This document shows positions 4,247 through 28,670 of a stretch of 40,669 nt of DNA, piece by piece. This stretch comes from Candidatus Aenigmatarchaeota archaeon (GTDB lineage Archaea > Aenigmatarchaeota > Aenigmatarchaeia > GW2011-AR5). How positions within the stretch are numbered: position 1 is the stretch's first letter; each line of letters opens with the position of its first letter. The notes under the pieces are model-generated. The model did no database searches and was not told the DNA's origin. It was given only the letters and a program-made list of their open reading frames with translations. The position numbers and the translations under genes were made by a program. The stretch is taken from the NCBI GenBank assembly GCA_018304605.1, contig JAGVVU010000009.1, positions 1 through 40,669 on the forward strand. Reading direction: 5' to 3'.

Positions 4247-4310
4247 ACAAATCCTTTTTCTTGAAAAAAAAGTCTTTGTGAACCCAAAAAGAACCTGTGT
4301 TCCTAAAGAC
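4247..4310 (-). repeat. Structured leader repeat directly upstream of the adk ATG (copy 1 of 2)
   Basis: Near-identical to 17803-17868; contains the ACAAA-GA-CTTTTT...GAAAAAG-GA-TTTGT hairpin ending at the ATG. Confidence 0.85.
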
Positions 4311-4807: not shown

Positions 4808-5050
4808 ATGCCTACGCTAAGTCTGTGGAAAAACAGGGAGACGACTCTTGTAATTGGAAATGTGGAATATCACGGAAGAGTTGTGAAGGGAGACTATACG
4901 CAGGATAGGGGCTTCAAGACTGAAAACACTCCAGAAAGATTGGAGCCAGGCTATGTATTTCAGACAGATGGTGGTGAGGAGATCAGATTATACACTAATG
5001 GGTCGCCTCGAGTAATTGCCGTGGACAGGCGTTTAGTCCAGGTAGATTAG
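4808..5050 (+). CDS. Hypothetical protein (80 aa)
   Basis: ATG-started ORF filling the gap between S10 and the glycosyltransferase; stop overlaps the convergent gene. Confidence 0.55.
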   Translation: MPTLSLWKNRETTLVIGNVEYHGRVVKGDYTQDRGFKTENTPERLEPGYVFQTDGGEEIRLYTNGSPRVIAVDRRLVQVD

Positions 5051-16385: not shown

Positions 16386-16811
16386 TTACTTGAGCGACTT
16401 CTGCTTCTTTCCTGTCCTTATCGCTTCTAGCGAAACATCATTGACCTTGATCACCGCGTATTTCACGCCGCCCATGCTGCCGACGGAGCCGCCCTGGCTG
16501 CCGCCTATGCCCTCGATTACGACCTGGTCGTGCTCCGAGACGTGGTTGATCGCGCCTGTTCTCGGCACGTGCGCGGTCACCTGCTTTCCGTTCTTGATGA
16601 GCCTTACGCGCACGCACTTTATCAGGCCGGAGTGGGGCTGCTTTTGCTCCACGACTCGCTTCTCCAGCACGATGCCTTTTGCCTGTGGAGCGCCCTCCAT
16701 AGGGTCTTTTTTCTTCTTTATCTGCAGAACGCGATTCCTATATTTAATCTGCTTCCACTTGTATCTCTTCCTGTCCTTTTTCAGTTTCCTTGCTGCGAAT
16801 TCTCCTGCCAT
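16386..16811 (-). CDS. rps12: 30S ribosomal protein uS12
   Basis: [20 protein letters not shown] and [16 protein letters not shown] motifs. Confidence 0.96.
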
Positions 16812-16848
16812 TATCAATCCCTTTCTTTCAGACCCTGCCTTCAATATT

Positions 16849-17019
16849 ATCTTAGATTCATTGAAAACTGCCATCTTCAGATGGCAGATGAAACACAATG
16901 AATCTGGGATCCCATCTTCCAACACAAGAATGAGCAAAGCTCATTCCGTGCAGGATGGCTCTTCGAGCCATCCTTGCAAACCCACGACTTTAGTCGTGGG
17001 ATATAAGGAAGATGTGATT
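16849..17019 (+). repeat. Multi-hairpin structured non-coding element, copy A
   Basis: Homologous to 28212-28433 and 28096-28211; nested stems with compensatory changes; contains CCCACGAC-TTTA-GTCGTGGG. Confidence 0.9.
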
Positions 17020-17140: not shown

Positions 17141-17545
17141 TTATTTCACCTTGAGTTCTTCCATGTCGAACAGCCGCTGCAGGAACTTGTTTATTATTTT
17201 TATGTTCTTTCCGCCCTTGCCTATCACCTTTGCCTTGTCGTTCGGCTTTATCTTGACGAATACAGTCTTCTCCTTCACGGAGAATTCCTGCACGCCCGGT
17301 ATTATGTTCTTTATGAACTCCTCAAGGCCCTCCGAATACTCGAAGACCTTTATGCTCTTCTTGAAGACACGCTCGGCGTTCTTTATCTTCGAGCCGTTCT
17401 TTCCGACGGTGGAGCCGTACTGTCCCTGCGCTATGACGAAGTATATCTCGTCACCCTCGCTTATCGCGTCAACGACAGAAGAACCAGTCAGATTCTGGAA
17501 TAGGCTTATTGACTGAATTGTATTCTGGTCAAGCGTTACTTTCAT
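17141..17545 (-). CDS. nusA: Archaeal NusA-like KH protein
   Basis: Two KH motifs (VGKNGSKIK, IGKGGKNIK); canonical position after L30e. Confidence 0.93.
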   Translation of the reverse strand: MKVTLDQNTIQSISLFQNLTGSSVVDAISEGDEIYFVIAQGQYGSTVGKNGSKIKNAERVFKKSIKVFEYSEGLEEFIKNIIPGVQEFSVKEKTVFVKIKPNDKAKVIGKGGKNIKIINKFLQRLFDMEELKVK

Positions 17546-17802: not shown

Positions 17803-17868
17803 ACAAATCCTTTTTCTTACGAAGAAAAAGTCTTTGTGAACCCAAAAAGAAATGATGTTCCTAAAGAC
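17803..17868 (-). repeat. Structured leader repeat directly upstream of the L30e ATG (copy 2 of 2)
   Basis: Near-identical to 4247-4310, in the same position relative to the start codon. Confidence 0.85.
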
Positions 17869-26343: not shown

Positions 26344-26459
26344 TGGTAAGCGACGTATAAACTTTCCCAAGCTCTCGCTTAGTACTCATTGTATCGCTGG
26401 AGAGATTCACTTCCAAGTTCGAAATGGGTTTGGGTCTACCCTCTCCGCTATGGCCGCCA
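26344..26459 (-). rRNA. rrf: 5S rRNA (stand-alone, upstream of tRNA-Asp and tRNA-Lys)
   Basis: Reverse complement TGGCGGCCATAGCGGAGAGGG...CCCATTTCGAACTTGGAAGTGAA...CCAGCG...AGTACT..GCGAGAGC..GGGAAA...GTCGCTTACCA matches 5S landmarks and length; ends approximate. Confidence 0.85.
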
Positions 26460-26521
26460 ACCTCTCGTTATTTCGATAAAAAGAGATTTAAAGATTACAA
26501 TTTGCGCCGATTTGCGTATTT

Positions 26522-27834: not shown

Positions 27835-28017
27835 ATGAAAATAGAACTCGTCGACATTGTAGTGGCCGTTTTGGCAGTCTTCTTCCTGGCCGCATACTTC
27901 AGGCTTGGCACTGCGGCATTCTTGTACGTCGTAGTCCTGCTGGTTCTGGCCGAAGTTGTCGTGCTGCTCAGGTTCAAGAAGGAGCGCGAGGTCAAGCAGC
28001 CCGAATCGATGCCTTAA
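27835..28017 (+). CDS. Small two-TM membrane protein
   Basis: 60-aa hydrophobic ORF 13 nt downstream of tRNA-Tyr. Confidence 0.55.
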   Translation: MKIELVDIVVAVLAVFFLAAYFRLGTAAFLYVVVLLVLAEVVVLLRFKKEREVKQPESMP

Positions 28018-28097
28018 CCCTTTTCTTTTTGCAAAAGAAAAGCCAAAGTTGCACGACGCTAAAGCGTCAGTCACTGGCGGAAAAGAAAACATATTAT
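28014..28097 (+). repeat. About 85 bp hairpin repeat starting at the stop codon of the upstream ORF (copy 2 of 2)
   Basis: Homologous to the reverse complement of 25695-25781. Confidence 0.85.
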
Positions 28098-28211
28098 CCT
28101 AGAATGCATTGAATACTGCGGTCTTTAGACCGCAGATGAAACTCAATGCATTCTGGATGCCATGTTCCCAGATACCCCATGGCTTTAGCCATGGGTTATA
28201 AGGAACATATC
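28096..28211 (+). repeat. Multi-hairpin structured non-coding element, copy C (minimal, divergent)
   Basis: Same two-domain scaffold as copies A and B, with compensatory substitutions. Confidence 0.8.
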
Positions 28212-28433
28212 ATCTTAGATTCATTGAAAACACACGGCTTTAGCCGTGTGATGTGGGAAAAGCTTTGCTTTTCCTGCACAGAAAGACTTTCAGTCTTTCT
28301 TGTGAAACATAATGAATCTGGGATCCCATCTTCCAACACAGGAAGGAACGAAGTTCCTTCCGTGCAGGATGGCTCTTTGAGCCATCCTTGCAAACCCACG
28401 ACTTTAGTCGTGGGATATAAGGAAGATGTGATT
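28212..28433 (+). repeat. Multi-hairpin structured non-coding element, copy B (largest)
   Basis: Shares long identical blocks with 16849-17019 and has two additional hairpins. Confidence 0.9.
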
Positions 28434-28670
28434 GTGGGCTCACTGACGTTCGCAGGGCAGAGCGAACCAAAATTATAATAGGTTCTTTTTCCCTTACATG
28501 CAGAAACGCAGTTTCTGCTGCACAGCAAGAGCTTGACTCTTGCTTGTGAGGATTTTTCTCCGTTCAAAGAAAGAGACTTATAGCATTTCTCAATAATAAT
28601 GGAACTTCTATTAAGAAATTCTATATGGAAAGAACACCATAATATGCTCCAAAATTAATGTTCTTTGCTA

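Follow-up and report, generated by a model that had tools for sequence, protein, structure and literature searches.

The stretch analyzed here (the window) covers positions 1 to 40,669 of contig JAGVVU010000009.1 of the Candidatus Aenigmatarchaeota archaeon assembly GCA_018304605.1, and its spacers carry three copies (A, B, and C) of a structured repeat element. Copy A lies in the spacer between nusA and the gene for ribosomal protein S12. It is antisense to both genes and 36 nt upstream of the S12 start codon (16809-16811, minus strand); the nusA stop is at 17141 (minus strand). Copies C and B form a tandem pair flanked by a 60-amino-acid (aa) open reading frame (ORF) on the plus strand and a 113-aa ORF on the minus strand. 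An earlier note, made from the DNA letters only, had described three structured copies and counted 2, 4, and 6 terminal hairpins in C, A, and B, respectively. The three copies exist, all of the stems and hairpins that it quoted were present, and the hairpin counts were correct; the boundaries were about 2 nt off. The boundaries given in Table 1 were set by end conservation across the family and by two tandem junctions.

Table 1. Positions of the element copies, their hairpins, and the nested modules in the window
Feature	Position	Strand	Description
TTAT 5' of copy A	16847..16850	+	Read as target/left cleavage motif; outside the element
Copy A	16851..17018	+	168 nt; putative left-end domain, putative right-end domain, and one nested double-hairpin module
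HP1 of A, CTGCCATC-TTCA-GATGGCAG	16868..16887	+	17 nt from 5' end
Nested double-hairpin module, right-end domain of A	16925..16978	+	Boundary ambiguous by 2 nt (CA); assigned by comparison with short forms reading CCAACAAACCC and by the frame common to stand-alone modules
HP2 of A, CCCACGAC-TTTA-GTCGTGGG	16981..17000	+	18 nt from 3' end
TTAT 5' of copy C	28094..28097	+	Target-type flank
Copy C	28098..28213	+	116 nt; basic two-hairpin form; last bases TCAT
HP1 of C	28116..28135	+	
HP2 of C	28176..28195	+	
Copy B	28214..28432	+	219 nt; starts right after the terminal TCAT of C; two nested double-hairpin modules
HP1 of B	28231..28250	+	
Double-hairpin module, left-end domain of B	28254..28304	+	Ambiguous by 2 nt (TG); frame ...CTGCACAG-stem-CTTGTG
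Double-hairpin module, right-end domain of B	28339..28392	+	Position as in A; orientation opposite to that of the left-domain module
HP2 of B	28395..28414	+	
Stand-alone double-hairpin module	28505..28557	.	Same spacer as C and B, outside any element copy

The copies share a two-domain plan, in which an outer stem (P1) encloses hairpin 1 (HP1) and a second outer stem (P3) encloses hairpin 2 (HP2). The outer stems are 10 to 15 bp long and covary, and the two domains abut at a central GGGAT|CCC junction. HP1 and HP2 have perfect 7- to 9-bp stems and a TTTA loop, with no bulged T seen, and the four bases 5' of them are AAAC, AAAA, AATA, CAAA, GAAA, or GATA. Unpaired motifs are conserved in the family as well, namely GAAAC, ATGAA, and the TTTA loops.

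When folded as single-stranded DNA (ssDNA), C plus B reached -102.8 kcal/mol (z = -20.4), and none of 100 shuffles was as low. Copy A reached -48.0 kcal/mol (z = -10.4; 0 of 200 shuffles as low). Pairing was then scored for a four-helix structure of 41 pairs in an alignment of 24 full-length short copies from the assembly. Paired cells made up 91.4% of the total, compared to 73.4% in column shuffles (0 of 500 reached the observed value) and 30 to 44% with slid partners. Both sides had changed in 26 of the 41 pairs, and the HP1 and HP2 helices both covaried. The conserved, covarying stems proposed in the earlier note were thus borne out. Because the 24 copies are paralogues and also served to derive the structure, the test shows that pairing has been kept, not what keeps it.

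One way to account for these helices is a structured non-coding RNA (ncRNA) family, acting in cis or trans, in which selection on the RNA maintains the stems. The four helices with compensatory changes, the very low folding energies, the conserved unpaired motifs, and two conserved T.G pairs that form on the plus strand only would all fit such a family. However, Rfam contained no match, and only a 5S rRNA passed the gathering threshold in the window. The best matches in the region 27950-28650 had E values of 0.46 to 0.87, far below gathering, and the SNORA15 or H/ACA-like candidate among them (E = 0.46; 19.9 bits versus 47) was rejected as a chance match. The 5S rRNA gene itself (26345-26461, minus strand; 68.9 bits) stands alone, and no other rRNA gene was found in the 40.7-kb window.

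The strand evidence did not favor an RNA either. The earlier note had argued from G-T wobbles that the plus strand is the folding strand; this argument proved weak. Two inherited columns, a TT/GG step near the base of P1, held 36 of the 55 G.T cells (T.G in 19 and 17 of the 24 copies), and the sporadic mismatches elsewhere comprised 19 G.T and 25 A.C, with no strand bias. As DNA, the minus strand of C plus B folded as well as the plus strand (-106.1 versus -102.8 kcal/mol). As RNA, the plus strand was slightly more stable in 16 of the 24 copies, with a mean difference of -0.3 kcal/mol. Loop sequence is a better marker of polarity than the wobble and folding tests. Among 70 analyzable copies drawn from six genomes, a T-rich loop (TTTA or TTCA) was on the element plus strand in 64 cases for HP1 and 57 for HP2, and the flipped loop, TAAA, was found in 4 and 8 cases. 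HP1 and HP2 are therefore direct, not inverted, doublets with the same loop strand. The occasional flips of a loop, together with deletion forms reduced to the two ends, argue against a maintained RNA.

The copies also showed no consistent orientation relative to neighboring genes. By rough gene calls, the gene on the 5' side had the same orientation as the element in 27 cases and the opposite one in 18, and the corresponding counts for the 3' side were 24 and 21. Copy A is antisense within the nusA-S12 cluster. In addition, no TnpB that would need an omega-RNA was found. The earlier note's alternative of an undescribed ncRNA family was left with no specific support, given the lack of an Rfam match, of a gene-orientation bias, and of a mismatch strand bias, and we consider an ncRNA family very improbable. 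The presence and absence of the element among congeners, described next, points the same way.

The element is not limited to the three copies that the earlier note knew. The assembly that contains the window (G000; contigs are given as C numbers) comprises 0.97 Mb in 63 contigs, with 48% G+C and an estimated completeness of 82.6%. Blastn searches with A, B, and C identified 31 loci in it, and an nhmmer profile built from seven short forms gave 79 hits that formed 46 clusters (about 44 sites) on 27 of the 63 contigs, nearly all of them intergenic. Subfamilies vary in the sequence of the outer stems and hairpins, and the plan is constant.

The G000 bin is mixed, however, so that its counts are counts per bin. 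Twenty of the 63 contigs (C6, C15, C20, C22, C32, C33, C37, C39, C41, C43, C45, C48, C50, C52, C55, C57, C58, C59, C61, and C62) have stretches at least 94% identical to a second genome, G010, and 12 match it almost end to end at 97 to 100%, whereas the other contigs match G010 at only 70 to 90%. Two of the 46 clusters (on C59 and C62) are on G010-like contigs; the window contig is not G010-like.

A covariance model of the unit, which scored copy C at 127.7 bits, detected the element in 31 of the 44 genomes of the taxonomic family, spread over 13 of its 19 genera, with up to about 55 matches per genome, a figure that overcounts loci because the matches include reverse-strand shadows. A sample of 141 genomes from the class gave matches in 7 of 12 further family members and, outside the family, one match each in 2 of 128 genomes.

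To examine insertion directly, we used the one orthologous site covered by the empty-site comparison, the nusA-S12 spacer. This spacer lacked the element in seven of seven congeners and both flanks aligned, so that the check in relatives proposed in the earlier note came out in favor of insertion. The congeners are only 75 to 82% identical at the spacer, which leaves the exact empty-site sequence ambiguous by a few bases.

Mobility is also supported by near-identical copies that sit in unrelated flanks within genomes. Among the best-scoring copies fetched from the covariance-model search, a nearest neighbor with an identity of 97% or more was seen for 12 of the 14 copies in G041, 16 of the 17 in G046, 10 of the 24 in G000, and 3 of the 6 in G014, but for none of the 8 in G010 or the 10 in G024. 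The exact 27-nt left flank of the C/B site had no match in metagenomes, two element end patterns had none in viral contigs, and blastn against plasmids and phages returned no match. Strain-level indels between G000 contigs and G010 were N gaps or assembly differences in coding regions and were rejected as element polymorphisms. One small difference was seen at the insertion shared by G000 C30:1152-1293 and the metagenome locus L262: an 8-nt duplication in the 3' arm of HP2 (GTGTGGGT twice) is present only in the assembly, and it is a small within-population hairpin polymorphism.

The ends of the element were well defined. The tetranucleotide in the 5' flank was TTAT in 57, TCAT in 7, TGAT in 3, CTAT in 2, and AAAT in 1 of the 70 copies. 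Thus, T[T/C/G]AT preceded the element in 67 of 70 copies, and it did so in 30 of 31 metagenome copies (TCAT 16, TTAT 11, TGAT 3, and CTAT 1), several of which are the same loci as in G000. The 3' end of the element reads GTGAT, ATCAT, TTCAT, or CTGAT, i.e., (G/C)AT, and the following base is variable. Of the two tandem junctions, one joins C to B in the window and the other, on C31, joins a T4 copy to a T1 start. In each, the ...TCAT of the upstream copy is immediately followed by the first base of the downstream copy. The flank tetranucleotide is replaced there by the last four bases of the upstream element, which indicates that the tetranucleotide belongs to the flank and not to the element.

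No target duplication was found in the flanks of 24 and 57 aligned copies; site A compared with G009 has a 3-nt TTA ambiguity that fits a duplication or none. There was also no terminal inverted repeat: the 5' end (CTTAG, CCTAG, or CTTGA...) and the reverse-complemented 3' end (ATCACATC...) share only ATC/GAT, and this count includes flank bases. These features bear on the idea of a classical miniature inverted-repeat transposable element (MITE), moved by a DDE transposase through its terminal inverted repeats. A MITE would be small and dispersed with AT-rich insertion sites, as the element is, and the outer stem of each domain resembles an inverted-repeat pair. Nevertheless, the lack of a flank duplication, the near absence of similarity between the extreme ends, the asymmetry of the ends, and the fixed loop polarity make a MITE extremely improbable.

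The distances from the ends to the hairpins were nearly invariant. HP1 was 17 nt from the 5' end in 21 of the 24 aligned copies and 18 nt in the other 3, and HP2 was 18 nt from the 3' end in 20 of 24. In A, B, and C, these distances are 17 to 18 nt and 18 nt, and the stretch between the two hairpins is 93, 144, and 40 nt, respectively. Length variation was confined to this stretch, and A, B, and C, at 116 to 219 nt, are too short to encode a transposase. Taken together, subterminal hairpins with fixed spacing, integration 3' of a tetranucleotide outside the element, and flanks that neither gain nor lose bases are the signature of the IS200/IS605 family of insertion sequences (ISs), as described for IS608 (PMC3201880).

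Two observations on insertion sites were made by eye. The first bases of the element (C-TTAG after TTAT) give the upstream ORF an in-frame TAG stop in several copies (G000 C40:5531, C53:5401, and C30:1734), and in two HAD-hydrolase-like genes the element is apparently located inside the coding region, in its 3' part.

The stretch between the hairpins differs among copies by discrete blocks. Domain 1 of the short forms contains the sequence ...GATGAAAC..., and their domain 2 contains ...CCAACAAACCC...; at these places, B carries a 51-nt block in domain 1, and A and B each carry a 54-nt block in domain 2. Each block is a pair of hairpins in the frame ~ACAAGG-stem-CCTGYACAGG-stem-CCTTGT, with stems that vary by copy and one bulged T per hairpin. 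The frame occurred 42 times in the assembly, counting both strands; some modules are alone in spacers, such as the one near copies C and B, and others are inside a different repeat family. The left-domain module of B recurs at the same position in C26, C30:1734, C35, C40, and C47, and the composite B form has an 87%-identical copy in G010 in which one stem is replaced. The added hairpins are a separate double-hairpin mini-repeat of about 50 nt that is nested in the element. With the modules nested, the 2, 4, and 6 hairpins of C, A, and B correspond to the base element plus zero, one, and two modules. The earlier note's phrase that the element "grows by acquiring hairpins" is therefore apt as a description, with the correction that the units are hairpin pairs from a separate mini-repeat family that also occurs alone in spacers.

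A further two-hairpin block, with the frame CGTACG...GGCGACTC...CGAGT, lies in the TT|TA loop of HP2 at G000 C36:10665-10893 and C47:4478-4715 and at the metagenome loci L245 and L275. At C30:31353-31450, the HP2 loop keeps only CGAGT (5 nt), which looks like a deletion remnant.

The assembly contains one Y1_Tnp gene, on C30 (81.5 bits), which encodes a 152-aa protein. The protein scored 89.3 bits on the IS200/IS605 equivalog model NF033573 (cutoff, 55) and 24.9 on the REP-associated model NF047646 (cutoff, 80), and it could be aligned with TnpA proteins of known structure (Sulfolobus, ISHp608, and ISDra2), the H-x-H motif and the Tyr both being in place. A 55-nt, one-hairpin copy of the element is located 152 nt upstream of this tnpA. 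It has a T1 5' end, a chimeric hairpin (HP1-type 5' arm and HP2-type 3' arm, with an A.G mismatch), and the usual 3' tail; from its composition, it would be the expected product of a deletion between the two similar hairpins. Downstream, the tnpA is followed by a CCAGCCAC-TTTA-GTGGCTGG hairpin.

A lone Y1 gene with a repeat copy beside it raises the question of a system like the repetitive extragenic palindromes (REPs) and bacterial interspersed mosaic elements (BIMEs), i.e., domesticated hairpins that the host maintains with a single-copy Y1 protein akin to RAYTs (REP-associated tyrosine transposases) and uses as structural sites in DNA or RNA, such as for protein binding or transcript ends. 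The nearly exclusive intergenic location, the mosaic and modular architecture, and the persistence of a structure-conserved element in 13 of 19 genera, including 17 genomes without a detectable Y1, agree with this picture. On the other hand, the C30 protein is far below the RAYT cutoff and well above that for IS200/IS605, and the GT[AG]G foot, a criterion given in the available part of PMC6006769, is absent 5' of the hairpins. The two hairpins are direct rather than inverted doublets, as noted above, and copy numbers range from 0 to dozens among congeners, with bursts of identical copies. We therefore view REP/BIME-like maintenance by the host as improbable.

Related genomes supplied IS ends for comparison. 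An orthologue of the C30 tnpA in G002 (89% identical, at a different site) carries at its left end a GCCCAC-TTTA-GTGGGC hairpin surrounded by an outer stem of 8 bp. More generally, the left end of tnpA-bearing ISs of the relatives has the form arm-AGAAAC-hairpin-(A/G)ATGAATT-arm' and folds with an outer stem that encloses the hairpin, and several right ends read GAAA-hairpin-...GGTCAT. The element reads arm-GAAAC-HP1-(G)ATGAAAC-arm' in domain 1 and arm-AAA-HP2-...-arm'-(G/C)AT in domain 2. On the basis of this resemblance, domain 1 is taken to be a left end and domain 2 to be a right end, and the same outer stems at the left ends of the family's tnpA-bearing ISs mark outer stems as a lineage trait of IS ends.

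At the tnpA loci of relatives, the element profile matched only adjacent copies of the element, on G000:C30 and G009:C126; another weak nhmmer match was the end of a different IS itself and was rejected. At the second of these loci (L071, 640-1970), two element copies with a common orientation flank two ORFs, one AbrB/SpoVT-like and the other PIN-like, which are apparently a toxin-antitoxin pair, and a tnpA on the opposite strand.

From these results, we consider it probable that A, B, and C are a gene-less, non-autonomous IS200/IS605 derivative of the type known as palindrome-associated transposable elements (PATEs), with nested double-hairpin mini-repeats. The copy number, the empty site, the end motifs without duplication, the fixed spacing, and the lone IS200/IS605-type tnpA beside a mini-copy all support the earlier note's other alternative, a non-autonomous mobile element that folds as ssDNA. 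Such an element would consist of the left end (domain 1) and the right end (domain 2) of an IS200/IS605-family IS. Its top strand would fold as ssDNA, and TnpA, a Y1 transposase of the HUH class supplied in trans, would bind the two subterminal hairpins, make its cuts after two motifs, the flanking TNAT and the terminal GAT, free a single-strand circle, and paste the circle 3' of another TNAT, following the "peel and paste" route of IS608. The long outer stems that enclose the hairpins set both predicted cleavage motifs beside the central GGGAT|CCC junction, and deletion between the two similar subterminal hairpins would give rise to the one-hairpin mini forms.

A number of results weigh against a PATE-type derivative. 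Because the bin is mixed, the "only tnpA of the genome" describes the bin. The right end of the resident tnpA (hairpin plus TAGTTCAC, 8 nt) differs from that of the element in spacing and end sequence. No autonomous IS with the same ends was found with the element profile at 20 plus 29 tnpA loci of relatives; thus, the search for a tnpA with the same palindromes, which the earlier note had proposed, yielded one IS200/IS605-type tnpA near a mini-copy and no IS with matching ends at 49 tnpA loci. In 41 metagenome stretches with a T3 left end, there was one TnpA-like ORF, 2.5 kb away (6 of the 37 distinct metagenome stretches were chance matches in unrelated DNA).

The distribution of transposase genes is a second concern. 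Y1_Tnp was found in 18 of the 44 family genomes, and it was not found at E <= 1e-5 in 17 of the 31 element-bearing genomes, whose assemblies are incomplete. Element and tnpA were both present in 14 genomes, the element only in 17, tnpA only in 4, and neither in 9, which shows no clear association. G046 (5 contigs, 93% complete) has only 33- to 35-aa Y1 remnants, yet it contains three subfamilies of near-identical copies, and G041 has near-identical copies and no Y1_Tnp at E <= 1e-5. This distribution weakens the simple view that a resident TnpA moves the elements, with the qualification that the assemblies are incomplete and that IS copies are often unassembled.

The strand results give a third set of counterpoints, since neither the sporadic mismatches nor the folding energies distinguished the strands. 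On G010:C1, 8 of 10 loci before 354 kb were in the plus orientation and 6 of 6 after 379 kb were in the minus orientation (L205-L226; 5 runs versus 9 expected). Cumulative GC skew on this contig had a weak maximum at 350 to 380 kb and gene-strand bias did not switch there, and the orientations on G046:C4 were mixed, so a tie to the replication strand was not established.

A further feature has no account under the PATE-type reading: hairpin stems are replaced wholesale inside conserved 5- to 8-nt frames. This replacement, the cleavage motifs locked in covarying stems that join the left and right ends at GGGAT|CCC, the double-hairpin cassettes at fixed points, and the bursts without an intact Y1 could be drawn together as a lineage-wide, self-organizing hairpin-cassette system that goes beyond decaying IS ends. 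We regard such a system as unlikely. If it did exist, the enzyme would be non-resident (in a co-resident strain, the host, or a virus) or unrecognized, or template switching would both diversify and repair the hairpins.

Other hairpin repeats were also noted in the assembly. A second family, with about 10 copies in G000 and one tandem pair, has a CTGCGGGC-TTTA-GCCCGCAG hairpin followed by a long stem around an ACGACC-TGAA-GGTCGT hairpin (C13:3114-3178 and 4987-5049; C22:19888-19952; C28:7005-7069; C44:43298-43362 and 43967-44031; C48:4820-4882; C51:815-970; and C54:8860-8875). Its design principle is that of the element studied here, and its sequence is different. A third family (C27:7390-7473, C28:4347-4366, and C34:3858-3875) has (ATA)CTATGGGC-TTTA-GCCCATAG(TAT) and TACGGCT-TAAA-AGCCGTA hairpins within a long stem. 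Repeats of the form GTGAACCC(A/C)(G/A)AA...TTCTGGGTTCAC-TATAAA are located in the window at 4263-4310 and 17821-17868, in L031 at 1337-1384, and in G000 at C29:1006-1060, C36, C47, and C49:10317-10400. They are often joined to the double-hairpin module, and one is located between the C30 mini-copy and tnpA; candidate explanations are a further mini-element and a promoter-like block. In the window, 1368-1432 contains a 21-nt unit in three perfect tandem copies (listed as 23-nt copies with 21-nt spacing; AATTATCAACTCTTTTGTCTAAA).

The reading of the element as mobile DNA has practical consequences. It accounts for conspicuous structured DNA between the genes of very small DPANN genomes (covariance-model matches, counting reverse-strand shadows, number in the dozens per roughly 1 Mb), it guards against annotating these repeats as ncRNA genes, and the two-domain covariance model marks element sites and precise ends for annotation. 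The family also provides a natural data set on the evolution of IS200/IS605 ends; it comprises many subfamilies whose stems are compensatory, hairpin spacing that stays fixed, a TNAT target that is loose, one-hairpin deletion forms, and nested mini-repeats. A literature search of limited coverage found no report of such repeats in Aenigmatarchaeota.

Among the known systems, which are compared here as described in the available parts of the cited papers, IS608 and ISDra2 (PMC3201880) resemble the element in having a subterminal hairpin on either side, an insertion point 3' of a specific tetranucleotide lying outside the element, no duplication, an own 3' tetranucleotide as the right cleavage site, and fixed distances from hairpin to cleavage site, and a homologous TnpA is encoded in the assembly. 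In contrast to these ISs, the element contains no tnpA, its TNAT target is looser at position 2, its cleavage motifs are paired into long stems, and HP1 and HP2 have perfect 7- to 9-bp stems with a TTTA loop and no bulged T seen; the hairpin distances are 17 to 18 and 18 nt, compared to 19 and 10 nt in IS608 (PMC3201880). REP, BIME, and REPIN systems with RAYTs (PMC6006769) are likewise intergenic, multicopy hairpin mosaics with a single Y1 gene beside a repeat. They differ in that the Y1 protein here fails the RAYT model, the GTAG/GTGG foot is missing, the hairpins are direct, and the repeated entity is a whole two-ended unit with defined termini.

Closer parallels are the PATE-like elements of Geobacillus stearothermophilus (PMC10055086), which are minimal, gene-less IS200/IS605 ends, predicted to be mobilized in trans by one tnpA and detected, like the element here, with covariance models of the ends. 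Those elements often carry an omega-RNA for TnpB, whereas no TnpB was found in this assembly (the best PF07282 match, 16.6 bits, was below the cutoff, and PF01385 had no match).

The closest parallel is with the PATEs of Haloquadratum walsbyi, although the likeness is based on the features described in the available part of PMC3119063 and not on end sequences. According to that source, PATEs have no inverted terminal repeats, near-terminal palindromes, and no target duplication, are too short to encode a transposase, and are linked to IS605-type transposons. The element shares the first four of these features and, like PATEs, is inserted beside a short conserved oligonucleotide at its 5' end and far outnumbers transposase-bearing elements. 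The 55-nt C30 copy parallels the 52-bp terminal-only forms that arose by repeat-mediated deletion between two palindromes (PMC3119063). Small mobile repeats (SMR-A) insert preferentially into PATEs, palindromes included (PMC3119063), and small repeats have inserted into the element, even into a palindrome, as in the HP2-loop insertions on C36 and C47. The differences lie in the host, which is a DPANN archaeon of about 1 Mb and not a haloarchaeon; in the 10- to 15-bp covarying outer stem around each subterminal hairpin, with domains that abut at GGGAT|CCC; and in the nested repeats, which are double hairpins of about 50 nt rather than SMR-A of about 110 bp.

Because gene-less PATEs, one-palindrome deletion forms, and inserting small repeats had already been described (PMC3119063), the earlier note's view of the element as the best candidate for a new system did not hold, and the element is probably selfish DNA of a familiar kind rather than a new RNA system. 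Strain-specific PATE insertions were reported in Haloquadratum even though the IS200-type transposases of one strain are all pseudogenes (PMC3119063). New insertions in strains without an intact IS200-type transposase are thus common to both, and a puzzle posed by Haloquadratum, PATE activity where no intact transposase is resident, recurs in an unrelated archaeal lineage.

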